From an uncultured Verrucomicrobiota bacterium (GTDB taxonomy: Bacteria > Verrucomicrobiota > Verrucomicrobiia > Limisphaerales > Palsa-1400), in contig CAZLEE010000001.1 in the NCBI GenBank assembly GCA_964558455.1, positions 4,228 through 68,227 of the forward strand: a DNA stretch of 64,000 bases. The letters run 5' to 3'. The notes under the pieces were generated by a model. The model did no database searches, was not told the DNA's origin, and saw only the letters and a program-made list of their open reading frames with translations. The position numbers were made by a program, and so were the translations under genes. Shown here one piece after another: positions 10,448 through 64,000 of the stretch (its first letter is position 1; the number at the start of each line of letters is the position of its first letter).

Positions 10448-10463
10448 TGGCATCATCTTTGCT
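10448..10463 (+). promoter_or_regulatory. Sigma54 (-24/-12) promoter upstream of the prepilin-like gene
   Basis: TGGCAT-catct-TTGCT versus the consensus TGGCAC-N5-TTGCW. The GG/GC spacing is exact. Confidence 0.7.
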
Positions 10464-10541
10464 AAAGTTAGCCAAAATCGAGTTAACACTGCTGGAGTTA
10501 TTAAAACAGTGGATGCTCTATTGGTAATTCAACTTAATACT

Positions 10542-11450
<909 letters not shown>

Positions 11451-31405: not shown

Positions 31406-34400
31406 TGGATCATTCCTCTGTGGGCGGCGCGACGACCTCGCCGGCCTTGGCGGGAGGTGTCTTCGCCTTGATTGCGGTAACGCCCGCAGCGGCGGCTGCG
31501 GCCTTGGAGGATTTTTTGAGCGTGATGTCGCATGCGACTCGCGATGATTTGGCAAAATCAACCGGTGGCGCAACAGTTTCCCCGGATGTGTCATCGTCCG
31601 GCCAGGATGCGTCGCCATCCATTGTGGCGCAGCCAATCGCGGGAGGCGTGACGGGCCGGGCGGCATTTTATCGGCAGAATATTTTCAATCCGCCATCTTC
31701 CGCCGCCGCCACTTCCAAAAACGCAACCGTTGCGGGCGCGCCTGCGGCTTTGCGGACAACATCCGCATCTCCAAAAAAACTGGCGCAATCGAAGGTTGCC
31801 ACCGTGTCCGCTGTTCAACAGGGCAACTTGGCGAACAAATCCATTTCTATTGCGCCTGCCGTTCAACAGAGTGAGTTGACGGGTAAATCCACCGCACTTG
31901 CCGCTGTGGAGCAGGGGCAGAGCGGGTTGGTGAATGAATCCATTGCGTCCGTCGTTCAACCATGCGAGTCAGCGGGCGAATCCGTTTCCATCACGCCCGC
32001 CGTCCAACAGGGCAAGTCAGCGAGTAAATCCACCACGCCCGCTGTTCAACAAGGACAGGGTGAATTGACGGGCAAACCCGTTGCGCCCGCGATTCAACAG
32101 AACGAGTTGGTGAATGAATCCATCGTGTCTGTCGTTCAACAAGACGGGTTGGCGGGCAAACCCATTTCCATTACGACAACCGCCCAACAAGGCGGATCAG
32201 CGGATAAACCTGTTGCGTCCGCTGCTCAACAGGGACAAGGCGAATTGGCAGATAGACCTGCCGCACCTGTGGTTCAGCAAGACGGGTTGGCGGGTAAATC
32301 CATTGCTATTACGACCATCGTCCAACAGGGTGGGTCAGCAAATGAACCCGCTACGTTTGTTGTTCAGCAGGACGGGCCGGTCAGTAAATCCATTTCCACT
32401 GCGACCGTCATCCAGCAGGGCGAGTCGGCGGGCAAACCTGCCGTGACCGTCGTGCAACAGGAACCGGTCGGGTTGGCCGGCAAACCGGCTGCGCCCGCCG
32501 AGCAAGACGAACTGGTGAACGAATCCACCGCGTCTGTTGCTCAACAAGGCGAGTCGGTGAGCAAATCCATTTTTATTACGACCACCGTCCAACAGGACGG
32601 ATCAGCAAACAAACCCGCCGCGCCTGCCGTTCAGCAAGACGAGTTGGCGAGTAAATCCATTTCCACTGCGACCGTCGTCCAACAGAGCGAGTCAGCAAGC
32701 AAACCTGCCGTGACCGTCGTGCAACAGGAACCGGTCGGGTTGGCCGGCAAACCGGCTGCGCCCGCCGAGCAAGACGAATTGGTGAATGAATCCACCGCGT
32801 CTGTTGCTCAACAAGACGAGTTGGTGAGCAAACCCATATCCATTACGACAACCGTCCAACAGGACGGATCGGCAGATCAACCTGTTGTATCCGCTGCTCA
32901 GCAGGGGCAAGGCGAATTGGCAGATAAACCTGCCGCGCCTGCCGTTCAGCAAGACGGGGCGGTCAGTAAATCCATTTCCACTGCGACCATCGTCCAGCGG
33001 GACGAGTCAGCGGGCAAACCTGCCGTGGCCGTCGTGCAACAGGAACCGGTCGGGTTGGCCGGCAAACCGGTTGCGCCCGCCGAGCAAGACAAATTGGTGG
33101 ACGAATCCACCGCGTCTGTTGCTCAACAAGGCGAGTTGGTGAGCAAACCCATTTCCATTACGACAACCGTTCAACAGGGCGCGTTGGCGAACGAACCTGC
33201 CGCATCCGCTATTCGGCAGGGACAGAATGAATCGACAGACAAACCTGTTGCGCCTGATGTTCAGCAAGACGAGGTTGCGAGCGAATCCATTTCCATCACG
33301 CCCCCCGTCCGGCAGGACGAGTCAGCGAGCAAACCTGCCGTGACCGTCGTGCAACAGGAACAGGTCGGGTTGGCCGGCAAACCCAGTGCGCCCGCCGTTC
33401 AGCAAGACGAGTCGGCGGATTCTCCGTCCGCGCCGGTGGTGGCCGAAATTGCCGACAATGCTCCGCTTCCGGCGCAAACACCAACGCCGTCACTTAATTT
33501 GCCGGGCGATGCGGCGGGGTCCGATGTTCTTGCGGCGGCGGTTTCCGCGCCTGTCCCCGCTCAACCGTCGTTGGTTTCCAATGCGGCCATGACCAAAACA
33601 ACCGTATCCGGGCGCGAAGTCCAGGCGAGCCGATCCCAATCCACGCGGAGCGATGCGGATGTCGCGGGCAAGATGGCCAATCCGCCGCGCGTCACGGACG
33701 ATTCGGAAGTTAAACCTGCCGCCAAAGTGGCGCCGGCTGCATCCCTGCCTGCACAGGGGAAGGCAAAGGAAACCAGCGCAGTGGCAGGAGGAACGGATCA
33801 CGCGAACGGTCAGGCGGCATCGCCGGAGGTAACAACGACATCTTTGCCGCAGGCGCCAGCGGCGGATCTTTCCATCACACCGGCGATGGCCGGCGTTGAG
33901 ATTGATGGCACGGTGAGTGCTTTAAATGGCCAACAGATGAAATCGACGCCAGAAAAGGACGAAATTGCCGGGCTTGCCGCGCAAAAAATGCCGGGGGCAC
34001 CCTGGCTGGCTGGCGTTTCTGTCAAAGCGTCGGATAATTTGGCCGTCGATTCCGATTCTGGTCCGTCAACCTCCGGGAATGTGATATCGGCGTCGTCCGT
34101 TGTCATCAACATGGCGGCCAAAACGGCGGAGACCACTTTGGGGGCGGTTGCAACAGCCGTCCCGGCTTCTTCCGCCGATCACGCCGCGGCGCAGGTGGAG
34201 CGTCTGGGAAATTGGGTGACTCAACAAGTTGTCATGGTGCAACAGTCCGGGATCAATAACATTGCGGTTTCGCTCAAACCCAATGCGGAGACCGAGCTGA
34301 GTTTGCAATTGACAAGTCACAACGGGCGGATTGAGGCAACCCTGAGTTTGGAACGGGGGGCCATGCCCGGGCTGGAGAGTCACTGGAAAGATTTGCAGGA

Positions 34401-34626
34401 ATCCCTCAGCCGGCAAAACGTGCAACTGCTTCCGCTGGAAAATAAAACGGCGGCCAGGACGTCCGCTTTGAATTCGTCCTTCGACAGTTCGTCACAAAAC
34501 TCCCGGCGGCAGAGCCGGGATACAGAACAAGAGTGGGTGCCGGCAGGGGAGATGGCGGCGCCGCTCGCAACCGGTAAAACAAAAGCCACGGCGACTTCCC
34601 GGCGGGGATGGGAATCCTGGGCCTGA
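31402..34626 (+). CDS. fliK: Giant flagellar hook-length control protein FliK (1074 aa) with a repetitive ruler region
   Basis: It sits between fliJ and flgD-flgE. The C-terminal Flg_hook-like domain reads AAQVERLGNWVTQQVVMVQQSGINNIAVSLKPNAETELSLQLTSHNGRIEATLSLE, and the centre is about 546 aa of tandem repeats. Confidence 0.8.
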   Translation: MMDHSSVGGATTSPALAGGVFALIAVTPAAAAAALEDFLSVMSHATRDDLAKSTGGATVSPDVSSSGQDASPSIVAQPIAGGVTGRAAFYRQNIFNPPSSAAATSKNATVAGAPAALRTTSASPKKLAQSKVATVSAVQQGNLANKSISIAPAVQQSELTGKSTALAAVEQGQSGLVNESIASVVQPCESAGESVSITPAVQQGKSASKSTTPAVQQGQGELTGKPVAPAIQQNELVNESIVSVVQQDGLAGKPISITTTAQQGGSADKPVASAAQQGQGELADRPAAPVVQQDGLAGKSIAITTIVQQGGSANEPATFVVQQDGPVSKSISTATVIQQGESAGKPAVTVVQQEPVGLAGKPAAPAEQDELVNESTASVAQQGESVSKSIFITTTVQQDGSANKPAAPAVQQDELASKSISTATVVQQSESASKPAVTVVQQEPVGLAGKPAAPAEQDELVNESTASVAQQDELVSKPISITTTVQQDGSADQPVVSAAQQGQGELADKPAAPAVQQDGAVSKSISTATIVQRDESAGKPAVAVVQQEPVGLAGKPVAPAEQDKLVDESTASVAQQGELVSKPISITTTVQQGALANEPAASAIRQGQNESTDKPVAPDVQQDEVASESISITPPVRQDESASKPAVTVVQQEQVGLAGKPSAPAVQQDESADSPSAPVVAEIADNAPLPAQTPTPSLNLPGDAAGSDVLAAAVSAPVPAQPSLVSNAAMTKTTVSGREVQASRSQSTRSDADVAGKMANPPRVTDDSEVKPAAKVAPAASLPAQGKAKETSAVAGGTDHANGQAASPEVTTTSLPQAPAADLSITPAMAGVEIDGTVSALNGQQMKSTPEKDEIAGLAAQKMPGAPWLAGVSVKASDNLAVDSDSGPSTSGNVISASSVVINMAAKTAETTLGAVATAVPASSADHAAAQVERLGNWVTQQVVMVQQSGINNIAVSLKPNAETELSLQLTSHNGRIEATLSLERGAMPGLESHWKDLQESLSRQNVQLLPLENKTAARTSALNSSFDSSSQNSRRQSRDTEQEWVPAGEMAAPLATGKTKATATSRRGWESWA
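31804..33441 (+). repeat. In-frame tandem repeat array inside fliK
   Basis: About 36 units (manual count) of 13-17 aa of the type [AV]VQQ[DGE]x[LSV][AV]xK[PS].... Higher-order DNA copies start at 32434, 32701, 33016 and 33331 (periods 267, 315 and 315 bp). The first 78 nt of copies 1 and 2 are identical. Confidence 0.95.
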
Positions 34627-47462: not shown

Positions 47463-47574
47463 CGGCCATGACCGGATCGCGACCGGGCATTTTTCTGCCG
47501 GGTCCGGGGGAAGGTTTTGCCGGTCATCGGTCTTTACGGCATCAATTCCCGCACAAAACGAGGCAATAACCATG

Positions 47575-54145: not shown

Positions 54146-55087
54146 ATGCGCGTATCCAGTTCAACTTTTACGGGTGGTTTTATCGGCGAGATCCAACAAT
54201 TGGAGCAACAGCAGAACACCCTGCAAGAGCAGGCCAGTTCCGGGCTTTCGGTGACGTTGCCATCAGACAATCCCTCCGTCATGTCCGAAGTGTTGAATCT
54301 GCAAACCAACGGCGCGGCCAACACCCAGTACCAAAGCAACATCACCCAATTGCAGGCCTCGGCCACAACATCCGCCACGGCCATGAACAGTTTGCAGACG
54401 ATTGTCAGCCAGGTGAATGAAATCGCCACCAACGCGTCCAGCGGGACGGCTTCTTCCACCCAACTCTCAACTTATGCGTCCGAAGTGGAAGCCTGCATCC
54501 AACAGGCCATGCAACTGGGCAACACGCAGGACGCCAACGGGAATTATATTTTCGGCGGCACCGATTCCAGCACCAAGCCGTTCGTTGCCACCACCGATGC
54601 CAACGGCAACGTCACGGGCGTCTCTTACAAGGGCAACACCAATGTGAACCAGAATGACATCGGGTTGAGTATGACCGTTGCCACCCAGGTTCCGGGCGAG
54701 AATACCACCGGCTCAGGTGCGGAAGGTCTTTTTGCGGACAGCCGCACCGGCGCGGATTTGTTCAAAGACATGGTTTCCCTGCAACAGAATCTGGCCTCGG
54801 GCGACACCAGCGCCATCAGTTCCACCAACGCGCCGGCCCTGACTAATGACGAGAATAATATCATCAACCAGATCAGCGCCAATGGCGTGGTGCAATCCGC
54901 CTTGACCGCCGCAAATACCATGGCCACCTCCCAAAATACCAATATGACCACGGAAATAACGAATGATACCAGCGCCAACATGGCCCAGACCATGACGGAA
55001 CTGGATCAGACCCAGACCGCCTACCAAGCTGCGCTGGAAAGTGGCACGATGGTGATGAGCGTATCGTTGCTCAATTACTTGCAGTAA
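54146..55087 (+). CDS. flgL: Hook-associated protein 3 FlgL
   Basis: MRVSSSTF...QEQASSGLSVTLPSDNPS, with a flagellin-like N-terminus and C-terminus (ELDQTQTAYQAALESG). Confidence 0.85.
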   Translation: MRVSSSTFTGGFIGEIQQLEQQQNTLQEQASSGLSVTLPSDNPSVMSEVLNLQTNGAANTQYQSNITQLQASATTSATAMNSLQTIVSQVNEIATNASSGTASSTQLSTYASEVEACIQQAMQLGNTQDANGNYIFGGTDSSTKPFVATTDANGNVTGVSYKGNTNVNQNDIGLSMTVATQVPGENTTGSGAEGLFADSRTGADLFKDMVSLQQNLASGDTSAISSTNAPALTNDENNIINQISANGVVQSALTAANTMATSQNTNMTTEITNDTSANMAQTMTELDQTQTAYQAALESGTMVMSVSLLNYLQ

Positions 55088-55151
55088 GTCCCCAGTAAGT
55101 CCCGTCATCGTCCGTCGCTTGCGGACGCCTCCCTCCCCGGCGCAACCCGCC

Positions 55152-56012
55152 TCAGGCGGCGCTGGGTACGGCGCTGGAAAAGAAGGCTTCTATCAACTGC
55201 ATTTGCTCGAAGGTATCCATCATCAATTGCGGGACGGACCGCTCCGTCATCTCCAGGTCGGCCAGAACTTCGGTGCGGGCGCGCTGGGCGAAGGCAACGT
55301 GACCATAGCCGTGCCCCATGAAACACGCCACCATATTGCCCATGTAAACACACGAAGCCAGACGTTGATAGACCCGGGCGTTTTTTGGGGTGTGATGAAA
55401 CGACACGGCCGCGATGATGTCCGGGGAGAAATTCCAATGTTGCAGCAATTGACCGCCCAATTCGGCGTGGTTGATCCCGAATAATTTCGTTTCGGCTTCC
55501 AGCAGGGAATGTCCGTTGCCTTCTGTCTCGGCCACGATTTTTGAGTAAGCGCCTTTCAACGAATCGGACAGGATGGTTTTTCCGATGTCATGCAGCAGGG
55601 TGGCGGTGAAGACGACGTTTTCATTTTCATTCCGCTGGCGGGCGATCAGTTGGGCGGCGGCGGCGGCGGTGACGGAATGTTTCCAGAGGTCGCCTTGTTC
55701 CATGCCGTATCCTTCCTGGGAGGCGCCCAGTATCTTGGCCCCGGTGGCGGCGGCCACAAGCTGGTAAATCTGCTGAAAACCCAGGCGGGTCACCGCATCC
55801 TGCAAATTGGATATCGGCGTGGCGGCGCCAAAATAGGCGCTGTTGCTGATGCGCAGCACGTTGGTCGTGAGCGACGGATCGTAGGAAATCAAATTGACGA
55901 TCCGGCTGCTGTCCGCATCCGGTTGGTTGATCAGCCGCATGAGTTCCGGCACCACGCGCGGAGCGGGCGGCAGATAGCGCAGGTTTCTAACGTAGTCGCT
56001 TATGGCTTGCAT
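55152..56012 (-). CDS. HDOD domain protein
   Basis: LPPAPRVVPELMRLINQPD...ISYDPSLTTNVLRISNSAYFG...ATLLHDIGKTIL. The start was chosen at MQAISDY; the ORF is open back to 56156. Confidence 0.75.
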   Translation of the reverse strand: MQAISDYVRNLRYLPPAPRVVPELMRLINQPDADSSRIVNLISYDPSLTTNVLRISNSAYFGAATPISNLQDAVTRLGFQQIYQLVAAATGAKILGASQEGYGMEQGDLWKHSVTAAAAAQLIARQRNENENVVFTATLLHDIGKTILSDSLKGAYSKIVAETEGNGHSLLEAETKLFGINHAELGGQLLQHWNFSPDIIAAVSFHHTPKNARVYQRLASCVYMGNMVACFMGHGYGHVAFAQRARTEVLADLEMTERSVPQLMMDTFEQMQLIEAFFSSAVPSAA

Positions 56013-56560
56013 AGAAATTTCGATATGATTTGACCGGAAAACCTCAATCGCACTTCCCCGGTCGCCATGGATAATTCCATGCTGCAATTGGTTCTTCCCC
56101 CCATGTTTTCCGCATTGAGGATGAAGCCCTTCTGCCGCAGAAATTCGCGGAGGCATTTCTGATTCTGCTTCCCCACATTAAGAAGGGAGATGTCATCCAT
56201 GATTTCCGCCGCGCCGGCCGCGAAGACGCGGATGCGTTCCGGAGCCGCCTTTAATTGTTGGGCGCAGGTCATCAGCGCCGCCCATCCTGTGTTCATGAAC
56301 ATCGCCGGGTGCAGGACCGCGCGCTTCTCATCCAGATCCGAGTCGGGCAACAGGCAATTCATAAGCCCGCCGACTTTTGCTTCAGCATCATAGATGGCGA
56401 TGCCGAGGCCCGCTCCCAATGGAGCCGTGTACAGCACGACCTGCGGGTCCTGGCTGAGCTTCAGCTCGGCTTGCCCGACCAGTATTCTGACAGGACGATC
56501 CGCCCGGGGGTCGGCTTGTGAGAAATTAACAGGGACGATAACTCTTTCGTCGTCAGTCAT
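56000..56560 (-). CDS. cheD: CheD-like chemoreceptor glutamine deamidase family protein
   Basis: LGAGLGIAIYDAEAKVGGLMNCLLP...FAAGAAEIM...VGKQNQKCLREFLRQKGF...NMGGRTNCSMELSMATGEV. It overlaps the HDOD gene by 13 nt. Confidence 0.7.
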   Translation of the reverse strand: MTDDERVIVPVNFSQADPRADRPVRILVGQAELKLSQDPQVVLYTAPLGAGLGIAIYDAEAKVGGLMNCLLPDSDLDEKRAVLHPAMFMNTGWAALMTCAQQLKAAPERIRVFAAGAAEIMDDISLLNVGKQNQKCLREFLRQKGFILNAENMGGRTNCSMELSMATGEVRLRFSGQIISKFLCKP

Positions 56561-56576
56561 TGTTTAGCACCGTTCT

Positions 56577-56603
56577 CCATCGGCACGAAAGCGCTTGCGC
56601 TTA
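56577..56603 (-). promoter_or_regulatory. Sigma28 (FliA)-type promoter for cheD-HDOD
   Basis: The minus strand reads TAAG-N15-GCCGATGG (consensus TAAA-N15-GCCGATAA), ending 16 nt before the cheD ATG. Confidence 0.5.
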
Positions 56604-56629
56604 ACCGTAAAATGCCGCAGTAATCACCG

Positions 56630-56643
56630 GGTTGTTTTTGCCT
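56630..56643 (+). promoter_or_regulatory. Shared upstream element GGTTGTTTTTGCCT (copy 1, 95 bp before the fliW -24 element)
   Basis: This is an exact 14-mer also found at 57512-57525. Looser relatives occur near the other sigma54 promoters. Confidence 0.4.
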
Positions 56644-56737
56644 GGTGTAGTCCGGGATGCGGCAGTTTTCTGCCTCTTTGGTGGGAAATTACCGGCGGGG
56701 TCGGTATTTCGCCGGGTGATTGGCCGGGATTGGGGCG

Positions 56738-56753
56738 TGGCACAATCTTTGCT
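56738..56753 (+). promoter_or_regulatory. Sigma54 promoter of fliW-csrA
   Basis: TGGCAC-aatct-TTGCT is a perfect core match, 27 nt before the fliW ATG. Confidence 0.7.
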
Positions 56754-56779
56754 AAACAGGGTTGGACTAGATCGAAATT

Positions 56780-57208
56780 ATGAATACCGAAACACTCTTG
56801 GAACCGCCGACACAGACTTTGGATGACCGGGCGATCATTCATCTCCCCTTTGGCCTTCTGGGGTTCGAGCAGGTCAAAAGCTATATTTTGCTGGCCGCGC
56901 CGAATGAAAAGCCCTTCATGTGGATGCAAATGATGGACGCCCCGAGGAAATCCTTTCTCATCGTCTCGCCTTTCCTGGTCATGCCGGAGTACCAGCTCGA
57001 CATTCCGGAGCGCGATGTTGAATTTCTCGATTTGACCGAGCCGACTGACGCGCTGGTCTTCAACATCTGCACCCTGCGCGGGCCGGGCAATGCCACCATC
57101 AATTTAAAAGCCCCTCTGGTCATCAATCGTTACACGTTGATCTGCAAGCAGGTCATCCCTGACAACGCCTCGCAATACGCCTTGAACCACCCTTTGCTTG
57201 TCACCTAA
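56780..57208 (+). CDS. fliW: Flagellar assembly factor FliW
   Basis: IHLPFGLLGFEQVKSYILL...PFMWMQMMD...FLIVSPFLVMPEYQLDI...ATINLKAPLVIN. Confidence 0.85.
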   Translation: MNTETLLEPPTQTLDDRAIIHLPFGLLGFEQVKSYILLAAPNEKPFMWMQMMDAPRKSFLIVSPFLVMPEYQLDIPERDVEFLDLTEPTDALVFNICTLRGPGNATINLKAPLVINRYTLICKQVIPDNASQYALNHPLLVT

Positions 57209-57228
57209 GACCGGACGGTCTGATTCCC

Positions 57229-57477
57229 ATGCTTATCCTTTCCCGCAAACCTGGCGAAAGCATCATCATTGATGGCCGCATCACCGTTCGTGTCATGCGG
57301 CTGGAAGGGGATGTGGTCAAGCTGGGCATCGACGCCCCCAGGGATGTCCCGGTCCATCGCCAGGAGGTTTACGAGGAAATTCAACGCAGTAACAAAGAGG
57401 CCGTGACGGATTCCCACCCCCCGCTGCCCCAACTCATCGTCCAGCCGCCTCCCGCTTCACCGGCTGCCAAGAAATAA
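57229..57477 (+). CDS. csrA: Carbon storage regulator CsrA (flagellar type with C-terminal extension)
   Basis: MLILSRKPGESIIIDGRITVRVMRLEGDVVKLGIDAPRDVPVHRQEVYEEI, plus a Pro-rich tail. Confidence 0.9.
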   Translation: MLILSRKPGESIIIDGRITVRVMRLEGDVVKLGIDAPRDVPVHRQEVYEEIQRSNKEAVTDSHPPLPQLIVQPPPASPAAKK

Positions 57478-57511
57478 CCCGCGCCAGCGCGTCACTGATT
57501 CGCTGCAATCT

Positions 57512-57525
57512 GGTTGTTTTTGCCT
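57512..57525 (+). promoter_or_regulatory. Shared upstream element GGTTGTTTTTGCCT (copy 2, 75 bp before the -24 element of the glycosyltransferase gene)
   Basis: Exact 14-mer match to 56630-56643. Confidence 0.4.
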
Positions 57526-57599
57526 ACCTCGGTTCGTTTTTTGACCAGGGAAGGGCTGTTTCCGACGGTTTGCCCGGCAGGGAGGTTCCCTTCAACTGG

Positions 57600-57615
57600 T
57601 GGCATATTCTTTGCT
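57600..57615 (+). promoter_or_regulatory. Sigma54 promoter of the giant glycosyltransferase gene
   Basis: TGGCAT-attct-TTGCT-TAAC, versus TGGCAC-aatct-TTGCT-AAAC at fliW. It lies 29 nt before the ATG at 57644. Confidence 0.65.
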
Positions 57616-57643
57616 TAACCTGTTCAAGGTATTCTCACATAAC

Positions 57644-60600
57644 ATGGAAATCGTCACCAATACACATCAGCCGGAAAATTTAATCAATTTGCGCAATGCG
57701 GCGCCGATGGTCTCCGCCATTATTTCCACTTATAACTCCGAGCTGTTCATGCGAAGTTGTATGGAGGATTTGATCGGCCAGACGCTGTTTGCGGCCGGGC
57801 AATTGGAAATCATCGTGGTGGATTCCTGCTCGCCCCAAAACGAAAAAGCCATTGTGGAGGAGTTTCAACAAAAATTCCCGAACATCGTTTATATCCGGAC
57901 CAAGGAGCGGGAAACAATTTTTGCGGCATGGAATCGCGCCTTGCTGGTGGCTCGCGGCCGCCTAATCACGTACGTCTGCACGGATGACCCGCACCGTCCC
58001 GATGCGTTGGAGCAGATGGCACGCGCCCTGGATGCCAATCCGCAGGCTGATGTGGTTTATGGTGACAGTTATGTGACTTGCGAACCCAACGCCGGCTGGG
58101 GTAAAGCCAGTATCAAAGGCCGGTTCTTCTGGCCGGACTTTGATGTGCGGTTGCTTTTCGATGTGTGTAACATGGGGCCGCAGCCTCTCTGGCGGCGTAG
58201 TGTGCATGACAGGTTTGGTCCCTTTGACCCCGATTACCGTTCGGCGGGCGATTATGAATACTGGCTTCGCCTGGCCGCAGCCGGCTGCAAGATGGTCCAT
58301 CTGCCGGACGTGGTGGGCCTCTATCTGGAACGACCGGATAGCGTCTCGCTTTCGGACGGAAACCTGAATTGGCGGGAATCGGAAAAAGCCCGTAACCGCT
58401 ATTGGCCGGTTGCCTGGGGGCCGCGTCCCGCAACGAAGTGGTATTCGTGTGAGAAGCCCGTGGCGAGCCTGCCCGGCGCTAAACCTTTGCGCGTATTGAT
58501 CGCTTGCGATTATTTCTGGCCCTCCGTGGGAGGAGTGGAATTGTACGTGGAGGATTTGGGAAAAAACCTCCAGGCCGCCGGCTGCGCGGTCGAGGTGGCG
58601 TGCCGGTCACTGCAGGAACGCTCCGCCACCGAACATGCCGGACTCAAAATTCACCAATTCGAGTGTGTCAATCAACACGGCTTCGCGCTCACTGACGCGG
58701 CCGCAACCCGCCTGCACAAGTTGCTGGCCGGGAAAAAATTCGACTGCGTGATCGTGCTTTCGCAGCCCAATAACTGGCTGGCAGCGTTGGTTTGGACGGC
58801 GAAAAACGCCGGCCTTAAGGTCGTCTTTCTCCCCAGCATCAATGAAACGGATTTGAACCAATGGCGCCAACAGGGTTTGATTGACAAGATGGCCGGGCTT
58901 CTCAAGGTTCCTGGCGAGTTGGTGGCGGTCACGGAGCATGGACGGGATATGCAGTTCATTAACGAGGCTGGCAGGGTTGCAACCTATATCCCGCACGCGG
59001 TGGAACAGGACGCGGACGGGCAGAATTTCCGGCGCCGCGCCGGCCTCGACCCCGATCTTCCTTTGTTGGTCATGGTGGCCAATTTCTGGCCGGTCAAGAA
59101 TCACCTGGAACTCCTCAACGTCCTCCAACGCAGTCAGGGCGACTGGCAATTGGCGATCATCGGTCATCGGATCGGCCATTTTGGCGAATACAGCGACCAA
59201 GTGGCCCGCCAGGCGGCTTTGGACCCGCGTGTCAAATTGTTGGGAGGACTCCCTCGCGCGGTGGCTGCTTCCGCCATTCGCGATGCCGACTTGCTGCTCG
59301 TGCCTTCGAAGGGCGAAAGCGCCGGACCGCTCGTGGTGTTGCAGGCCATGAGCTACGGCACTGCCTGGATCGCAACGCCCCAGTGCAATGCCGTGGCTGA
59401 TGAGGCCGGTGGCATGGTGGCGGAGCTGAACAAATTTCCCGAGGCGATTCGCGCGCTGCTGGCTGCTCCCGCCAAACGCCGTGAGCTTGGCCAGGCCGGG
59501 CATGAGCATTGGGGACGGTGTTTTACGTGGAAGCAGAGCATCCCCGCCTTCCTGTCCATATTGCGCGGCAATGGTTACGTCCCCAACCTGCGCATGCCAG
59601 CCGATTTGCGGGAAAAGAACCTTGCCATCCAAAAGGAAATCGCCGGATCAGGCGGTTGGAATGTGACCGCGACTCAGCTCCCATCTTCCCCGGCGCCGAC
59701 AGGCGGGTTGCTGGTATCGGTTGTCATCCCCACCTATAATCGAAGCGCCACGCTGATGCTATGCCTTGAAGCGCTGGCGCGCCAGACCGTGCCAGTGTCG
59801 CAGTTTGAGGTCATTGTCTCCGACGACGGTTCCACGGACGACACGGCGGCGCGGGTGGAGGCTTGCCATGCTCCCTTCGCCCTGCGCTATTTGCGCCAAA
59901 AAAATTCCGGCCCGGCGGCGGCGCGGAACCGCGCCATCGAGCAGGCGCGCGGCCATTATCTCTTTATTCTGAACGACGACGCCGTCCTGGAACCGGATGC
60001 GATGGCGCTGCATCTGGCGACACATCAAAACCATCTCGGAGAAAAGATTGCGGTGTTGGGCCGCTTCTCCTTCCCCTCAACCTTGACAGCGGCCCCGTTT
60101 GGATACGCGTTGGAACATTCTGATCTGCTCTTTACTTATGTGCATTTGAAAGCGGGCGGGAAACATGATTACAACTCCTTCTTCACCTGCAATATTTCAC
60201 TCCCCCGGCAGGCCGTATTGGACGCGGGCCTGTTTGATGAAATATTCACCGGACCCGCAGCCGAGGATATTGAACTGGGCTACCGGTTATTCCAGCGCGG
60301 TTACGAGGTGGTTTACGAGCCGCGGTGCGTGGCCTGGCATCATCATGACATGACGCCGGAAGGGTTTTGCCGCGTCCACCATACCCGTGGCGAAGGGGCG
60401 ATCACGCTGATGCTCAAACAGCCGGACGCGCCATTGTACCGCGGCACGGATTTCGCCGCTCTGCCAGCGTCTCTCGACAACCTCAAAAAGAAGTTCCCGT
60501 CCGTGAAGTCCGTTGTTTCGCTGTTGAACAAGGTAAATGCCGATGCGGTTCCAGACGCCAAAACGTTGAACGACCGTGCCGAACAAATGGTGCAATTGCT

Positions 60601-63600
60601 GCGTTTTTTGCAATGTTACCACGAACTGGAAGGGATGCTTGCCAGTCCGCGACTTCCGGAACTGATTGAACTCCGCCGGAAACGACAACAGAAGATTAGC
60701 GACGCATCCCCGGCGCCGATCGTGTCCGTGATCATCCCCTGTTACAATTACGCCCACCTTTTGACCGAGGCGGTGGAGAGCGTGCTGCAACAGACTTTCC
60801 AAGGCTTTGAAATTATTATTGTCAACGACGGCAGCCCCGATGACACGGTCGAGGTGGCCAACCATTTGATCCGGCGGGATGCCGGCAATCACCGCATAAA
60901 GCTGATCTCTCAGGCCAATTCCGGCCAGCCCGCCGCCGCCCGCAATACAGGCATCAAGGCCGCTGTCGGTGAATACATTCTTCCGCTGGATGCCGATGAC
61001 AAGATCGCGCCGGATTTTCTGGAAAAAACCGTGGCCGTCCTGCGGTCTTCGCCCGAAATTGGCGTGGCCTACACCCATATCCAGCATTTTGGCGCGATCC
61101 AGAGTGTTTACACTTGCGGACCCTTTGAAGCTGCAGTCTTGGCGCAGGACAATGTCCTGCCTTATTGCGCGCTTTATCGCCGCCGCCTTTGGGAGAAAGT
61201 GGGTGGCTATCCCCTGATGGGATATGAGGACTGGGATTTTTGGTTGACTCTGGCCGAGCGCGGCTGCCAGGGCCGGCTCGTGCCGGAACCGCTTTTCTGC
61301 TACCGGAAACACGAACGGGGCATGCTTAGTCAGTTCAACCAAAAAAGGCAGCGGTTGCTGGCGCAAATAATCCGCAACCATCCCAAACTTTATGCCGGGG
61401 CCGGTCAGAAAACCGTTCAGGAATTGCCCCAAAAAACTCCCGCCGGTTCCACGCGCGTGCCCCTGCGCGTCACTTATCTGATTACAAGCATCCTGGGCGT
61501 GACCGGGGGCAATCAAACCCTCCTGCGCCAGGCGGAGGAAATGCGTCGGCGCGGCCATGACGTGACGATTGTCACTTACACTCCCAAGCCGGATTGGTTC
61601 CGGTTTCAAATGCGCGTCATTCAGGCGCCGCCCGGACAGCCGCTCGCCGGCTATGTTCCACCAAGCGATGTCGTCGTGGCCACCTATTTCGTCAATGCGC
61701 CGGAACTCATGGCCGTCAAGGCGCCGGTCAAAATATATTACGCGCAAGGCGACCAGTTCATTTTCAATGACACGACCATGGCCGACACGGCGGAGAACCG
61801 CCAATGGCGCAAGCTTTCCCGCGCTTCCTACGAACTGCCCGGCATCCGTTTTGTGCCTAATTCGCGCAATCTCGCCCAGGCGGTGCAAGCCCTTTGCGGA
61901 CGGCGTCCCGACGCCATCCTGCCGGTCTGCACGGACCAGACCATTTTCCGCCCGTTGCGCAAATCAGCCCCGGGATCGAGATGCCGCATCTTGATTGTCG
62001 GCCCGGACGCGCGCGGCACGGCGATTGAGCCGCTTTTGTTCAAGGGCATCGCCGACATCCACGACGGGTTGCAAATCCTGGCGCGCCAATATCCGCATTT
62101 TACCGCCGTGCGCATGTCTTCCGGGCCGCCCGATATTTTTGCGCGTTTCCCCTGCGAGTATTACATCGCACCCGATGATGAGACCAAGACGGCCTTGTTC
62201 GGCTTGGCGGACATCCTGGTTTACGCCTCTCATTATGACTCCTGTCCGCGTCCGCCGCAGGAGGCGATGGCGGCGGGATGCGCCGTCATTTGCACCGCCA
62301 CAGCCGGCGCGCTGGAGTATTGCCGCGACGGCGAAAACGCCCTGCTTATTCCGGTCAAATCGCCCGAGGCCATTGCCGGGGCGGTGGAACGACTCGTCCG
62401 TGATCCCGCCTTGCGCGAAAAATTGGCCGCCGGCGGCCTGGCCACCGCGCGCGAATATCCCCGCGAGCGCGAATGGAACGAGTGGGAGAATATACTTTAC
62501 AAATTCATGGGCGAAGCGGCTGGCTCCGTCCCGGCCAAACCGGCCAAATCCGCCGCGGGCATTGTGCTGCCGCCCTGCGCGCTGGAGGGACATCTGGGGC
62601 CTGCGCGCGAATTGTTGAACAAGAAAAATCTTCGCGCCGTCTGCGAATCCGCCTGCGCGGCTCTCAAAGTCCGTCCCTTCCATCCGGAAGCCTGGCTTTT
62701 AATCGGTAAAGCGGCGCAAGCGGCGGGCGATTCCGTCTCTGCGCGCCAATGCGGACAGCGCGCCGCGCAATTCGCCCCCGATTGGAAACCGGCCCGCCAA
62801 TTTCTTAAAACGATCCGTCCCGGCAACAGCAAGGCCGCATGGCTGGCGCTTCCGCCGGGCGTCTCGGAGAATACGCCCCCGCGTCTGACCGTTTGTTTGA
62901 TTGTAAAAAACGAGGAGCGGTTCCTGGCCCGGTGCCTGCGCTCGGTGCGCGACATTGCGCGGCAGATTATTGTGGTTGATACCGGTTCCACCGACAAGAC
63001 CGTGGCCATTGCCCGGGAATTCAAGGCGGAGGTTTATTCATTCGCCTGGAACGACGACTTCAGCGCGGCGCGGAACGAGGCCTTGCGCCATGCCACGGGC
63101 GATTGGATTCTGAGTCTGGATGCGGACGAGGAATTGCTGCCGGAGCATCAGCAGACCATTTTGCAGGAAATGCAGTCGGCCAAGGTGATTGGCTACCGGC
63201 TGCCGATTCTGAACGAAGGCTTGGAAGCGGAGGGTTGCAGCTACGTGCCGCGCCTGTTCCGCAATGCGCCCGGACTTTTCTTTGTCGGGCGGGTTCACGA
63301 GCAGGTTTTCAGCAGCATCGAGGTGCGGGCGAGGGAATGGGGTTTGGAACATTGTTTGGGCCGGTCGGTTTTGCTCCACCACGGTTACACCAGCGAAATG
63401 GTGGCAAGCCGGGACAAGGTGGCGCGCAACTTGCGCCTGCTGAAACTGGCCACCGAAGAATTGCCGGACGAACCCAACCTGGTGATGAACCTGGGGCTGG
63501 AGACGATCCGTTCGGGTCGCTTGGTGGAGGGGTTGGGTTATTACCGCGAAGCCTTGCGGCTCATGGCCGCCTTGCCGCCCAAACAGATCATGCCGGAATT

Positions 63601-64000
63601 GCGCGAAACCTTGTTGACACAACTGACCACCAGTTTGCTCGGGGCGCGCCGCCATGCCGAAATCGAGGAGCTTTGGCGGGAGCCTTACGTGAAATCCTTT
63701 GAGATGACGGCGTCGCAGCATTTCATGCTCGGACTGGCCTGCATGGAATTAAAACAGCCCGCGGCGGCGGCCGAACACATGCGCGCCTGCCTGGCCAATC
63801 GCGCAAAGCCCGCCCTCTCGCCTGTCAATAAACAGATTCTCACCGCCGCCCCCGGCCATTGCCTGGCCCTTTCCCTGGTGGCGCTGCAGCAGGGCGCGAA
63901 GGCGGAGCAGGCCTTTCGCGAGGCGCTGGCGGAGGATCCGAAATCGCGTCCGGCGCGTTTTGATTTTGCCCGGTTCCTCTTTCAACAAGGCCGTCCGCTC
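57644..64000 (+). CDS. Giant multi-module glycosyltransferase (4 GT-A/GT2-like and 2 GT-B/GT4-like modules plus TPR regions), 3' end beyond the window
   Basis: I translated this frame codon by codon from 57644 to 64000 and found 2119 sense codons with no stop. It is absent from the ORF track because there is no stop in the window, and no other ORF is listed in this frame. Module starts are as follows. GT2-a starts about 57707 (MVSAIISTYN; VVDSCS; TDD). GT-B-1 starts about 58487 (LRVLIACDYFWPSVGG...ESAGPLVVLQAMSYG). GT2-b starts about 59708 (VSVVIPTYNRS; SDDGSTD; LNDD). GT2-c starts about 60719 (VSVIIPCYN; VNDGSPD; LDADD). GT-B-2 starts about 61463 (LRVTYLITS...PPQEAMAAGCAVICT..GALEY). A TPR-like region spans about 62580-62810. 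GT2-d starts about 62882 (LTVCLIVKNEE; VDTGSTD; LDADEEL). A second TPR region runs from about 63420 to 64000. Confidence 0.85.
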   Translation, partial: MEIVTNTHQPENLINLRNAAPMVSAIISTYNSELFMRSCMEDLIGQTLFAAGQLEIIVVDSCSPQNEKAIVEEFQQKFPNIVYIRTKERETIFAAWNRALLVARGRLITYVCTDDPHRPDALEQMARALDANPQADVVYGDSYVTCEPNAGWGKASIKGRFFWPDFDVRLLFDVCNMGPQPLWRRSVHDRFGPFDPDYRSAGDYEYWLRLAAAGCKMVHLPDVVGLYLERPDSVSLSDGNLNWRESEKARNRYWPVAWGPRPATKWYSCEKPVASLPGAKPLRVLIACDYFWPSVGGVELYVEDLGKNLQAAGCAVEVACRSLQERSATEHAGLKIHQFECVNQHGFALTDAAATRLHKLLAGKKFDCVIVLSQPNNWLAALVWTAKNAGLKVVFLPSINETDLNQWRQQGLIDKMAGLLKVPGELVAVTEHGRDMQFINEAGRVATYIPHAVEQDADGQNFRRRAGLDPDLPLLVMVANFWPVKNHLELLNVLQRSQGDWQLAIIGHRIGHFGEYSDQVARQAALDPRVKLLGGLPRAVAASAIRDADLLLVPSKGESAGPLVVLQAMSYGTAWIATPQCNAVADEAGGMVAELNKFPEAIRALLAAPAKRRELGQAGHEHWGRCFTWKQSIPAFLSILRGNGYVPNLRMPADLREKNLAIQKEIAGSGGWNVTATQLPSSPAPTGGLLVSVVIPTYNRSATLMLCLEALARQTVPVSQFEVIVSDDGSTDDTAARVEACHAPFALRYLRQKNSGPAAARNRAIEQARGHYLFILNDDAVLEPDAMALHLATHQNHLGEKIAVLGRFSFPSTLTAAPFGYALEHSDLLFTYVHLKAGGKHDYNSFFTCNISLPRQAVLDAGLFDEIFTGPAAEDIELGYRLFQRGYEVVYEPRCVAWHHHDMTPEGFCRVHHTRGEGAITLMLKQPDAPLYRGTDFAALPASLDNLKKKFPSVKSVVSLLNKVNADAVPDAKTLNDRAEQMVQLLRFLQCYHELEGMLASPRLPELIELRRKRQQKISDASPAPIVSVIIPCYNYAHLLTEAVESVLQQTFQGFEIIIVNDGSPDDTVEVANHLIRRDAGNHRIKLISQANSGQPAAARNTGIKAAVGEYILPLDADDKIAPDFLEKTVAVLRSSPEIGVAYTHIQHFGAIQSVYTCGPFEAAVLAQDNVLPYCALYRRRLWEKVGGYPLMGYEDWDFWLTLAERGCQGRLVPEPLFCYRKHERGMLSQFNQKRQRLLAQIIRNHPKLYAGAGQKTVQELPQKTPAGSTRVPLRVTYLITSILGVTGGNQTLLRQAEEMRRRGHDVTIVTYTPKPDWFRFQMRVIQAPPGQPLAGYVPPSDVVVATYFVNAPELMAVKAPVKIYYAQGDQFIFNDTTMADTAENRQWRKLSRASYELPGIRFVPNSRNLAQAVQALCGRRPDAILPVCTDQTIFRPLRKSAPGSRCRILIVGPDARGTAIEPLLFKGIADIHDGLQILARQYPHFTAVRMSSGPPDIFARFPCEYYIAPDDETKTALFGLADILVYASHYDSCPRPPQEAMAAGCAVICTATAGALEYCRDGENALLIPVKSPEAIAGAVERLVRDPALREKLAAGGLATAREYPREREWNEWENILYKFMGEAAGSVPAKPAKSAAGIVLPPCALEGHLGPARELLNKKNLRAVCESACAALKVRPFHPEAWLLIGKAAQAAGDSVSARQCGQRAAQFAPDWKPARQFLKTIRPGNSKAAWLALPPGVSENTPPRLTVCLIVKNEERFLARCLRSVRDIARQIIVVDTGSTDKTVAIAREFKAEVYSFAWNDDFSAARNEALRHATGDWILSLDADEELLPEHQQTILQEMQSAKVIGYRLPILNEGLEAEGCSYVPRLFRNAPGLFFVGRVHEQVFSSIEVRAREWGLEHCLGRSVLLHHGYTSEMVASRDKVARNLRLLKLATEELPDEPNLVMNLGLETIRSGRLVEGLGYYREALRLMAALPPKQIMPELRETLLTQLTTSLLGARRHAEIEELWREPYVKSFEMTASQHFMLGLACMELKQPAAAAEHMRACLANRAKPALSPVNKQILTAAPGHCLALSLVALQQGAKAEQAFREALAEDPKSRPARFDFARFLFQQGRPL

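Follow-up and report, generated by a model that had tools for sequence, protein, structure and literature searches.

A giant gene with six fused glycosyltransferase modules and a GmaR-like end in a flagellar gene cluster of an uncultured Verrucomicrobiota bacterium: a candidate flagellin-glycosylating megaenzyme

RESULTS

Our window, a stretch of 64,000 nucleotides (nt) of contig CAZLEE010000001.1 from an uncultured Verrucomicrobiota bacterium, carries toward its end fliW (56780..57208; Pfam FliW, E = 3.6e-32) and csrA (57229..57477; Pfam CsrA, E = 5.4e-24) and, directly behind these, a giant glycosyltransferase (GT) gene (57644..64000); all features given here with coordinates lie on the + strand. 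The genes flgK and flgL are located ~2.6 to 5 kb upstream of the giant gene. No flagellin gene is present within the window, no nucleotide-sugar biosynthesis genes adjoin the giant gene, and no priming phosphoglycosyltransferase, flippase, polymerase, or ABC exporter gene lies beside it.

Translation of the window revealed that the frame from ATG 57644 to base 64000 comprises 2,119 codons without a stop, an outcome with a chance of ~6e-34 given the base composition of the window. The gene is missing from the ORF list that accompanied the sequence because it has no stop within the window. Its locus is also present on six other metagenome contigs (L001 to L006), of which L001, L003, and L005 match the window locus at 100% DNA identity and L002, L004, and L006 at ~98%. 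Two of these contigs from different samples (L002 and L003) each span the whole gene, which, called from ATG 57644, has 2,285 uninterrupted codons; the stop codon lies 498 nt past the window end, and the genes downstream are HDOD, RmuC, and others. Over its full length, the L002 strain variant differs from the giant gene by 88 substitutions (49 synonymous and 39 nonsynonymous; dN/dS 0.25), with no indels, frameshift, or stop, and the L002 and window proteins show 34 residue differences across 2,119 codons in a gap-free alignment. An identical protein (P0001) is held in public collections. Because L002 and L003 carry the gene intact, the five module junctions are not assembly or frameshift artefacts. 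Likewise, the same eight-part order occurs within a single ORF in five orthologues (56 to 68% identity), so that a merger of several ordinary GT genes through assembly or sequencing errors, for which we found no supporting evidence, is exceedingly improbable. We conclude that the giant gene is genuine and evolves under constraint. Overlapping ORFs in other frames or on the opposite strand gave zero Pfam family matches, and zero Rfam hits were obtained. Thus, what the first-pass annotation had claimed of this gene, namely, a frame open from ATG 57644 to the window end, in-frame junctions, and absence from the ORF list, was confirmed, and the 3' end that it had sought was found, with the above-mentioned genes behind it.

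The Pfam order along the protein is GT2, GT4, GT2, GT2, GT4, weak TPR, GT2, and TPR, with four GT2 and two GT-B modules above threshold. Module 1 (57704..58393; ~aa 21-250) is a GT2 (GT-A) module matching PF00535 (E = 9.3e-24, aa 24-157), with motifs VVDSCS and TDD. Module 2 (58490..59563; ~aa 283-640), a GT4-type GT-B, matches PF13579/PF13439 and PF00534/PF13692 (~aa 295-620). Two further GT2 modules matching PF00535 follow, i.e., module 3 (59711..60433; ~aa 690-930; E = 2.4e-26, ~aa 692-910; motifs DDGSTDD and NDD) and module 4 (60707..61363; ~aa 1022-1240; E = 1.1e-34, aa 1028-1235; motifs NDGSPDD and DADD). The closest solved relative of module 4 is a GT2 domain of the chondroitin polymerase K4CP (PDB 2z86, E = 7.5e-34). 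Module 5 (61466..62473; ~aa 1275-1610) is again a GT4-type GT-B (~aa 1287-1600), in which the C-terminal half matches PF00534 above threshold (E = 7.8e-18) and the N-terminal half is weak and below it. A helical linker, TPRa (62534..62863; aa 1631-1740), with weak TPR_16/TPR_2 matches below threshold (~aa 1673-1714), leads to module 6 (62876..63445; aa 1745-1934), a GmaR/SunS-type GT2 (Pfam match aa 1749-1850; motifs DTGSTD and DADEE) that we propose as the protein-priming module. The all-helical TPR-type domain TPRb (63446..64000, running past the window; aa 1935-2285), a proposed substrate binder, shows Pfam TPR_2, TPR_14, and TPR_19 matches from ~aa 2020 to ~aa 2170, followed by a helical tail. 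Translation and Pfam thus fully support the earlier description, in which a single ORF combines four modules of the GT-A type and two of the GT-B type with two regions of helical repeats.

Comparison of six orthologues (56 to 68% identity) revealed that catalytic-type motifs (DxD-type and E-x7-E-type) are kept in all six modules, which thus look functional. More specifically, module 2 carries GESAGPLVVLQAM (E-x7-Q, with Q replacing the second E) and module 5 carries YDSCPRPPQEAM (D-x7-E instead of the canonical E-x7-E), and both variants are invariant in the six orthologues. Invariant positions make up 39 to 50% of each module versus 17 to 18% of the helical parts. Pairwise identity among the five upstream modules is only 24 to 36%. 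The protein has no membrane segment (highest Kyte-Doolittle 19-residue mean, 1.35), and its top NCBIfam matches are to exopolysaccharide, teichuronic acid, and PNAG enzymes, all of them below the cut-offs.

A pattern scan for sigma54-type -24/-12 promoters (TGGCAY-N5-TTGCW) yielded 4 matches in the window versus 0.29 expected, all on the + strand and each immediately 5' of a gene. The genes behind such matches include flgF, fliW, and the giant gene, and a pilin-like gene in the window has the same type of match. The match TGGCACAATCTTTGCT (56738..56753) ends 27 nt before the fliW ATG, and TGGCATATTCTTTGCT (57600..57615) lies upstream of the giant gene; the two promoter stretches are identical at 17 of 20 positions. 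The 14-nt element GGTTGTTTTTGCCT has only two exact copies in the window, one (56630..56643) located 108 nt upstream of the fliW promoter and the other (57512..57525) located 88 nt upstream of the giant-gene match. The near-identical promoters and the shared element described in the first-pass annotation were both recovered. Sigma70-like, sigma28-like, and terminator-like sites are all absent from the csrA-giant gap. The predicted sigma54 promoter of the giant gene thus matches the consensus strongly in sequence; however, it is not conserved, no match being present upstream of the giant genes in five relatives (L036, L007, L035, L038, and L039). In the window ORFs that we scanned with Pfam, neither rpoN nor a gene for an enhancer-binding protein was identified.

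Module 6 matched the GT domain of Listeria GmaR (PDB 22ao) with an E value of 7.5e-32 and 39% identity over 183 residues, and SunS (PDB 7msp) with an E value of 1.6e-17 in a sequence search. Outside the GT domain, zero similarity to the GmaR linker/antirepressor regions was detected in the giant protein. An AF2 model of the C-terminal unit (mean pLDDT 88, pTM 0.83) shows helical repeats behind a GT-A domain, with helices spanning model residues 188 to 549. The top Foldseek matches for this model were SunS and ThuS (PDB 7msp, 7msn, and 7msk; E = 4e-15 to 6e-14), and lower matches were TPR superhelices, including those of OGT and SPINDLY. SunS and ThuS are glycocin S-glycosyltransferases acting on peptides, SunS S-linking the sugar to Cys. 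As modeled, the last GT2 and its helical tail have the SunS/ThuS-like peptide glycosyltransferase fold, and homology and model together place the end piece in the protein/peptide-glycosylating GmaR/SunS type.

The giant protein is a typical member of a large family rather than a one-off. Its architecture, which the first-pass annotation did not recognize as described, is not unique: among the 150 best database clusters with a GmaR-like end piece, 66 are of at least 2,000 residues, and databases name the family only generically. We found no publication on the family in the literature library searched. Six detected GT modules is the upper limit in clusters carrying the end piece, and the closest orthologues are even larger. 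TPRa was recovered as a unit in most homologues and directly precedes the GmaR-like module in most relatives examined, some relatives also having methyltransferase or sulfotransferase domains.

A flagellin gene lies no more than 10 kb away in 6 of 10 distinct relatives examined. Orthologues with 58 to 63% identity have the order fliW, csrA, flagellin, giant; this is the order in P0003, and in P0005 it is preceded by flgF to flgL. In P0038, genes for flagellin, a TPR protein, and a 2,321-residue protein precede the giant in this order; in P0033, both flagellin and fliS lie no farther than 5 kb away; and Geomonas terrae P0110 adjoins flaF, flbT, and flagellin. Behind fliW-csrA in Sulfopaludibacter (L007) comes a 1,631-residue GT ending in a GmaR-like unit, with flagellin 5 kb off. 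The flagellin beside relatives' giants carries both Flagellin_N and Flagellin_C and is not flgK or flgL. An unfused version occurs in an Acidobacteriota locus (L040), in which a 3,193-residue protein containing the cassette of modules 1 to 4 is followed by a 492-residue TPR/GT9 gene and then by a stand-alone 532-residue GmaR-like GT2-TPR protein, immediately behind which lie three flagellin genes and fliS, fliD, fliT, and flaG. Another protein, of 1,635 residues, has the cassette but no GmaR-like end; it is encoded beside ABC-2 transporter pairs and further GT2 genes, in a polysaccharide-type locus with no flagellar genes nearby. For the orthologue P0004 (59% identity), flagellar genes are absent from the available 10 kb upstream and ~2 kb downstream. 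Flavobacteriales and other Bacteroidota, which to our knowledge lack flagella, have partial homologues. Accordingly, the extender modules are glycan builders of a generic kind, which are not diagnostic of flagellin.

DISCUSSION

The nearest characterized relative is GmaR of Listeria monocytogenes (637 aa), a flagellin O-GlcNAc transferase, the GT domain of which transfers GlcNAc to flagellin and which moonlights as an antirepressor of MogR (PMC9638930). In both proteins, a GT-A domain of ~190 residues directly precedes a helical TPR-type domain and the gene lies with flagellar genes, and stand-alone relatives of the unit (560 to 720 residues) are GmaR-sized. The giant protein differs in having five extra GT modules (~1,630 residues) and TPRa in front, and whereas GmaR adds a single GlcNAc, its own product would be a multi-sugar one. 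In Clostridioides difficile, the type B flagellin glycan is built stepwise by GT1, GT2, and GT3 (PMC5207246). The proposed logic is the same, i.e., a cytoplasmic initiator followed by stepwise extenders (PMC5207246, PMC5207245). The GT genes lie beside flagellin there, as in relatives of the giant, and the methylated and sulfonated glycan (PMC5207246, PMC5207245) parallels their methyltransferase and sulfotransferase domains; in contrast, GT1, GT2, and GT3 are separate proteins and the six modules form one chain. Caulobacter crescentus FlmG, in which an N-terminal TPR binds flagellin and a C-terminal GT-B-like domain transfers pseudaminic acid (PMC7591256), had been cited as precedent in the first-pass annotation. 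It stands as an analogy, being a modular cytoplasmic flagellin GT with TPR binding and GT modification, the principle invoked there, but not as family: domain order and GT fold differ, since in the giant a GT-A, the candidate priming domain, precedes the TPR. By homology, the precedent is GmaR instead. Among the window ORFs scanned, we found no nonulosonic-acid genes.

SunS and ThuS share the GT-A plus helical C-terminal domain and act on a polypeptide, the acceptor type predicted for the giant protein; however, the latter reaches just 103.5 bits with the NCBIfam SunS-family equivalog, for which the cut-off is 350, and no glycocin precursor gene lies near its gene. Like Escherichia coli K4CP, it places several Leloir GT domains on one polypeptide, and because they share one chain, successive transfers may proceed without release. 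Other multidomain glycan polymerases include WbbB, WbdA, and Bcs3-type capsule polymerases; K4CP-like polymerases have two or three catalytic domains and make repeating polymers on lipid or oligosaccharide primers. The giant protein, in contrast, has six different modules, a protein-targeting end piece, and no nearby export machinery.

That comparison bears on whether the acceptor might be a lipid or free molecule, with the protein making an O-antigen, exopolysaccharide, or capsule-like chain and its flagellar position being incidental. The nonflagellar cassette locus, the K4CP resemblance of module 4, the best, though subthreshold, NCBIfam matches, and the setting of P0004 all point that way. 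We nevertheless regard this reading as rather unlikely, given a protein without a membrane segment, neighbors (fliW, csrA, HDOD, and RmuC) that include none of the lipid-linked or export functions looked for, an end piece of GmaR/SunS type, and flagellin synteny that recurs among relatives. It is likewise unlikely, if marginally less so, that the enzyme glycosylates a protein other than flagellin (FlgK, FlgL, hook, a type IV pilin-like protein, or, as OGT does, many cytoplasmic proteins), as relatives' giants adjoin true flagellin genes and the characterized homologue acts on flagellin (PMC9638930). In its favor are the lack of an adjoining flagellin gene here, the nearby flgK and flgL, the promoter match shared with the pilin-like gene, and the generic protein-binding nature of TPRs, of which those of OGT and SPINDLY were matched in the fold search.

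Very unlikely, in our estimate, is a partly noncatalytic chain with degenerate scaffolds or a regulatory tail, adding one or two sugars or serving mainly in regulation within the FliW-CsrA circuit. The antirepressor role of GmaR (PMC9638930), the variant motifs of modules 2 and 5, and the location directly 3' of csrA would be consistent with it; however, those variants are invariant in the orthologues, the modules are far richer in invariant positions than the helical parts, and the similarity to GmaR is confined to its GT domain.

We therefore favor, as the probable reading, a megaenzyme that binds flagellin and primes it through the GmaR-like end, the glycan then being extended by the five fused modules. 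The first-pass idea of a flagellin assembly line is strengthened by the GmaR homology and SunS/ThuS-like fold of the end piece, the flagellin synteny of relatives, and the unfused version, and weakened by a window without a flagellin gene. The giant gene is part of the late flagellar cluster, where a sigma54-type promoter of its own would drive it and read-through from fliW-csrA probably contributes as well. Its product, a single 2,285-residue protein that is soluble and cytoplasmic, would represent a pathway of flagellin O-glycosylation fused into one chain: the C-terminal unit (TPRa linker, GmaR/SunS-type GT-A, and helical TPR domain of ~350 residues) would hold flagellin before export and put the first sugar on Ser or Thr, and modules 1 to 5 (GT2, GT4, GT2, GT2, and GT4), each a distinct enzyme, would extend it with sugars from ordinary nucleotide-sugar pools. 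Because five sugar-adding enzymes are joined to a GmaR-related end piece, multi-sugar decoration of flagellin is the most likely outcome, and flagellin kept on a single polypeptide may thereby acquire an oligosaccharide with as many as about six sugars.

An intact gene of 2,285 codons

Translation of the window showed that the frame of the giant glycosyltransferase (GT) gene, opening at ATG 57644 (+ strand), runs to base 64000 over 2,119 codons with zero stops, a stretch whose probability at the window's base composition is ~6e-34. As the first-pass annotation had stated, the gene is absent from the ORF list, and this is only because it runs off the window. By looking up the adjacent CsrA protein, we found six further metagenome contigs with the locus, three being 100% identical to the window at the DNA level and three representing strain variants (~98%). 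Two of these contigs (L002 and L003), both spanning the gene and called from ATG 57644, supplied the 3′ end that had been sought beyond the window, i.e., a stop 498 nt past it and a full gene of 2,285 codons. The gene call in L001 starts at a GTG 45 nt upstream of ATG 57644 and overlaps the promoter match.

The L002 protein differs from that of the window at 34 amino acids over 2,119 codons, with zero gaps, and the full genes are separated by 49 synonymous and 39 non-synonymous changes (dN/dS, 0.25). Since the spanning contigs give one 2,285-codon frame and the strain variant is gap-free at this dN/dS, the five module junctions, which had been read as in frame at about 58.35-58.49, 59.58-59.71, 60.41-60.72, 61.39-61.46 and 62.51-62.88 kb, are genuine, with no stop or frameshift, and these coordinates agree with the Pfam module boundaries. 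No Pfam family was found in the six ORFs overlapping the gene in other frames or on the opposite strand, and Rfam returned zero hits across 55000-64000. Module 4 (60644-61423) carries 27 of the 88 window-versus-L002 substitutions in 11% of the gene (binomial p 9.5e-7), and its dS is 0.073 versus 0.014-0.049 in those of the other segments that show synonymous changes at all, which suggests a recombined or faster-evolving module.

Six glycosyltransferase modules with conserved catalytic motifs

Pfam scans of the whole giant protein and of eight in-frame segments resolved, in order, a GT2 module (aa 24-157), a GT4-type GT-B module (~aa 295-620), two further GT2 modules (~aa 692-910 and aa 1028-1235), a second GT-B module (~aa 1287-1600), a weak TPR-like linker below Pfam thresholds (~aa 1673-1714; TPRa), a fourth GT2 module (aa 1749-1850), and TPR repeats (~aa 2020 to ~2170) followed by a helical tail to aa 2285. 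This order confirms the four GT-A modules, two GT-B modules and two TPR-like regions read by hand translation, the first TPR-like region being the sub-threshold one. Pairwise identity among the four GT2 modules is only 24-36%, and thus they represent different enzymes rather than recent duplicates. The protein lacks any hydrophobic segment, and solubility is predicted for it. In an alignment of six orthologues sharing the whole core (56-68% identity), the nucleotide-binding Asp and the DxD-type motifs are conserved in all four GT-A modules with one exception, an N at the nucleotide-binding Asp of module 1 in a single orthologue. Likewise, the GT-B E-x7-E-type motifs (E-x7-Q and D-x7-E in the giant protein) are invariant, and invariant positions make up 39-50% of each catalytic module versus 17-18% of the helical parts. 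All NCBIfam equivalog matches fell below their cut-offs, and so no NCBIfam name could be transferred.

A GmaR/SunS-type unit at the C-terminus

In a phmmer search against PDB sequences, aa 1745-1934 matched the GT domain of GmaR (22ao chain residues 8-196) with an E-value of 7.5e-32 and 39% identity, with further matches to the glycocin S-glycosyltransferases SunS and ThuS. The DTGSTD and DADEE motifs of module 6 align with the same GmaR residues and are invariant in 14 relatives. Module 6 thus shares with GmaR a homologous GT-A domain, the DxD-type motif and nucleotide-binding Asp, and a TPR region directly after the GT domain (Pfam TPR_2, TPR_14 and TPR_19). In GmaR, the N-terminal domain transfers GlcNAc to flagellin, and the TPR domain that follows has been proposed to recognize flagellin (PMC9638930). 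An AlphaFold (AF2) model of aa 1736-2285, with the 14 relatives as input (pLDDT, 88; pTM, 0.83), consists of a GT-A domain and, after it, an uninterrupted helical-repeat domain, all-helical over model residues 188-549. Foldseek placed SunS and ThuS as the best PDB matches of this model, followed by TPR superhelices including O-GlcNAc transferase. The giant protein matched the GT-domain chain of GmaR alone in the PDB sequence search, and the top 50 fold matches contain no structure of the GmaR C-terminus (antirepressor domain, MogR-binding). On these alignments and the predicted fold, the C-terminal 550 residues are best described as a putative GmaR/SunS-type glycosyltransferase acting on polypeptides.

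The first-pass annotation had offered Caulobacter FlmG as a precedent, and this comparison did not hold. FlmG has an N-terminal TPR and a C-terminal GT-B domain (PMC7591256), whereas the priming candidate in the giant protein is a GT-A domain followed by TPR, i.e., the opposite order; FlmG is therefore an analogy and not a relative, and GmaR is the homologous precedent. Membership of the FlmG family was rejected because domain order and content differ (PMC7591256). The two GT-B modules of the giant protein are internal, without TPR before them, and no pseudaminic or legionaminic acid biosynthesis genes were found among the window genes scanned. Membership of the Maf family was also rejected, as PF01973 is missing from the Pfam hits of the giant protein and, among the precomputed Pfam lists of the relatives, is present only in that of a distant relative (P0018, Desulfobacterota). 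The SunS-family equivalog TIGR04195 scored 103.5 bits against a cut-off of 350 and was not assigned, although SunS remains the best fold resemblance in the PDB.

Five orthologues share the core, and several relatives lie near flagellin genes

A protein identical to the giant protein is already in public collections, and where members of its cluster have a name, it is just 'glycosyltransferase involved in cell wall biosynthesis'. In five orthologues (56-68% identity; 2,788-3,660 aa), the eight parts of the core recur in unchanged order, and each of these proteins carries an additional 500-1,350 N-terminal residues with sulfotransferase, methyltransferase or GT9 domains, making the giant protein the shortest of its orthologous group. 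The order fliW, csrA, flagellin, giant gene was found for the relative P0003 and, preceded by flgF to flgL, for P0005; P0002 follows csrA and two small genes. In Sulfopaludibacter (L007), flgI to flgL, fliW and csrA precede a gene for a 1,631-aa GT ending in a TPRa-GmaR-like-TPR unit, with flagellin 5 kb away. Among further relatives, P0038 follows flagellin, a TPR protein and a 2,321-aa protein, P0033 has flagellin and fliS within 5 kb, and P0110 of Geomonas terrae (3,935 aa) lies beside flaF, flbT and flagellin. For P0004 (59% identity), no flagellar neighbours were found within the available flanking sequence. The Ser/Thr content of the relatives' flagellins (~0.2) was not informative.

The most telling context is that of an Acidobacteriota locus (L040). 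Here, a 3,193-aa protein consists of the M1-M4 cassette (modules 1-4) without the end piece, and its gene is followed by a 492-aa TPR/GT9 gene and then by a gene for a separate 532-aa GmaR-like GT2-TPR protein, directly upstream of three tandem flagellin genes, after which come fliS, fliD, fliT and flaG. This is the same system in unfused form. The M1-M4 cassette also occurs alone, forming a protein of 1,635 residues whose gene lies next to ABC-2 transporter genes in a polysaccharide-type locus (L041), indicating that the extender modules are generic glycan builders which, in the giant protein, are coupled to a protein-targeting unit. In P0018, the precomputed Pfam list shows the cassette fused to a Maf-type domain (PF01973); together with L041, this suggests reuse of the cassette alongside varying targeting or export partners.

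Several observations concern individual lineages. In P0003 and P0005, the flagellin gene between csrA and the giant gene encodes 267-277 residues and their own giant proteins have an extra N-terminal methyltransferase or GT9 region; the window has only a 166-nt csrA-giant gap (57477-57644) and is missing both, and its lineage may have lost or moved them. The Geomonas terrae locus L037 (GCA_004791675.1, 1-31808), the flagellin locus of a cultured organism, encodes giant TPR/GT proteins of 3,935, 1,229 (GT41-type), 985 and >1,448 residues and could serve as an experimental model for the family. In a genome scan with the giant protein, the best match had 49% identity over part of the protein. Matches in Paenibacillus, Cohnella, Brocadia and Bacteroidota were dropped as evidence for function, as they comprise partial modules in loci without flagellin, fliW or csrA.

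A large family built on the same end piece

A profile of the C-terminal unit (TPRa linker, GmaR-like module 6 and the following TPR) was searched against 1.84 billion representative proteins and gave 9,764 hits at E≤1e-30, with the end piece carried by at least 150 clusters at 50% identity. Among the best 150 of the 9,764 hits, the unit was matched over approximately its full length at the extreme C-terminus in nearly all, and lengths ranged from 420 to 5,089 aa (median, 1,845), with 66 proteins of at least 2,000 aa and 46 at least as long as the giant protein. GT-module counts in these 150, which are lower bounds, were one in 59 proteins, two in 44, three in 25, four in 14, five in 5 and six in 3; six modules are thus the top of the detected range and not unique. 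Different members carry different enzyme chains on the same GmaR-like end piece, and those with a named source or locus belong to Verrucomicrobiota, Acidobacteriota and Desulfobacterota. Genome annotation labels them just 'glycosyltransferase' or 'FkbM family methyltransferase', and we found no description of this family in the searched literature on giant or multidomain flagellin glycosyltransferases. The architecture had initially not been recognised as described; judged by the best 150 of the 9,764 hits, it is not singular but that of a typical member of a large, undescribed family.

Flagellar neighbourhood and promoter

The window's flagellar cluster comprises fliF, fliI, a rod/hook-type gene, fliL, fliM, fliP, fliR, flhB, flhA, an flhF-like gene, a fliA-type sigma factor, motA and motB, followed by rod genes from ~47604, flgI, an flgJ-like gene, flgN, flgK and flgL; fliW, csrA and the giant gene close it, the last lying directly after fliW-csrA as had been noted. 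No flagellin gene was found within the window. FlhA shares 84-89% identity with proteins under the labels Limisphaerales, Verrucomicrobiota, Verrucomicrobiae and Pedosphaera, which places the host, an uncultured Verrucomicrobium, in the Limisphaerales/Pedosphaera group. The stretch separating fliI from the rod/hook gene contains ORFs of 198 (30809-31405) and 1,074 residues (31402-34626), neither with a Pfam match and the longer also without an NCBIfam match; they may represent a highly divergent fliK/fliJ pair or else flagellar proteins specific to this lineage. An HDOD/HD-domain gene and cheD are inserted on the minus strand between flgL and fliW (55152-56560), and a second HDOD gene lies directly 3′ of the giant gene (L001 17386-17964, minus strand); among the relatives, P0003 and P0033 have HD-type response-regulator genes nearby, and P0038 is followed at ~7 kb by an HDOD/HD gene.

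Four copies of the sigma54-type pattern TGGCAY-N5-TTGCW were found in the window (0.29 expected), each on the + strand and immediately upstream of a gene, namely, a pilin-like gene (10448-10463), flgF (47575), fliW (56738) and the giant gene (57600-57615; GG at -24, GC at -12, TGGCAC-N5-TTGCW spacing). The promoter stretches of fliW and the giant gene are identical at 17 of 20 positions, and the 14-mer GGTTGTTTTTGCCT, with exactly two exact copies in the window, lies 108 nt upstream of the former and 88 nt upstream of the latter, as the claim of near-identical promoters with a shared 14-nt upstream element had it. Sigma28-type patterns numbered 13 (9.1 expected), none of them upstream of the giant gene, and a scan of 56500-57800 for sigma70 sites and terminators gave no promoter-like sequence and left the csrA-giant gap empty. 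Since this gap is without sigma70-like, sigma28-like and terminator sites, the giant gene could also be reached by read-through from fliW. The scan of window genes brought up neither rpoN nor an activator gene. The proposal of a flagellar-type sigma54 promoter stands as far as the sequence match goes, but the match upstream of the giant gene is conserved only within the same species, and none was found upstream of the relatives' giant genes in five loci (L007, L035, L036, L038 and L039). Geomonas L037 has two sigma54-type matches (1728 and 5166), upstream of a GT2-TPR gene and of an epimerase gene, the latter heading the gene run that contains its giant. We regard the sigma54 promoter as well founded at the sequence level, though unproven.

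Some further features accompany these sites. The palindrome GGCA(G/T)TTTTCTGCC lies at 56661-56674, 77 nt upstream of the fliW promoter, and at 47486-47499, 89 nt upstream of the flgF promoter; with up to two mismatches it occurs four times in the window (0.75 expected), and the giant gene has none upstream. As an element common to two flagellar promoters, it may serve as a binding site for an enhancer-binding protein. The probable ATG of the flgF-type gene (47604; M-N-V-S-L-Y-Q-A-A-A) is 14 nt past the end of its match, which would imply a nearly leaderless mRNA, and the predicted leaders of fliW and the giant gene are ~16-18 nt with no clear Shine-Dalgarno. Downstream of the match at 10448-10463, the ORF 10509-11450 (313 residues) has a prepilin-type N-terminal methylation motif and a weak 'Verru_Chthon cassette protein D' match.

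A proposed flagellin O-glycosylation megaenzyme

To our knowledge, characterised flagellin glycosylation systems rely on a single transferase or on a small number of separate ones. We propose that the giant protein is probably a cytoplasmic flagellin O-glycosylation megaenzyme, in which the helical domains of the end piece would hold flagellin before export, the GmaR-like module 6 would attach the first sugar, presumably to flagellin Ser/Thr as flagellin synteny in relatives suggests, and the five other modules, if all are active, would extend the glycan chain. The assembly-line interpretation advanced in the first-pass annotation is thereby supported through GmaR homology, the SunS-like fold and the flagellin synteny. 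Such a protein would be the one-polypeptide equivalent of GT1, GT2 and GT3, which act stepwise on the type B flagellin of C. difficile (PMC5207246). A review describes flagellin glycosylation as enzymatically still ill-defined (PMC12645811).

Other readings draw on parts of the same evidence. An acceptor protein other than flagellin, with which the window's content of flagellar genes other than flagellin is compatible, is unlikely given the flagellin genes that adjoin the giant gene in several relatives. We also think it improbable that the protein is a polysaccharide synthase unrelated to flagellin, a function in keeping with the cassette beside ABC-2 transporters in L041; a K4CP-like polymerase, which has two alternating GT domains, makes a repeating polymer and has an export system nearby, was rejected, as the modules are 24-36% identical and no transporter or polymerase genes flank the giant gene. 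The variant GT-B motifs E-x7-Q and D-x7-E would suit a partly non-catalytic or regulatory protein, which the invariance of these motifs across the six orthologues makes very unlikely. That the long ORF is an assembly artefact is extremely improbable in view of the contigs that span it.

The flagellin megaenzyme reading thus places a whole flagellin glycosylation pathway, fused in one soluble polypeptide, at this locus; cytoplasmic flagellin glycosylation by TPR-bearing transferases is already known, and here it is fused as a six-enzyme chain. If the model is right, one gene and one flagellin would suffice to rebuild in E. coli a defined protein O-glycan of several sugars, and single-module mutants would reveal the assembly order. 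A bolder and rather doubtful extension is that the family is a modular protein O-glycan assembly line, in which a conserved end piece that docks and primes flagellin (TPRa, GmaR-like GT, TPR) is recombined with varying extender GT, methyltransferase and sulfotransferase modules, and the module set, perhaps also its order, encodes the glycan sequence; if true, sugars would be assembled by a template-free logic resembling that of polyketide synthases, reprogrammable by module swaps. The family, modular and shuffled in its organisation, gives the finding more of its value than the single gene does; it is large and diverse, with lengths of up to 5,089 residues. Should the model hold, the shuffled modules would be parts for glycoengineering, and the diversity of flagellar glycans among uncultured bacteria of soil and water would be explained by natural shuffling of modules.
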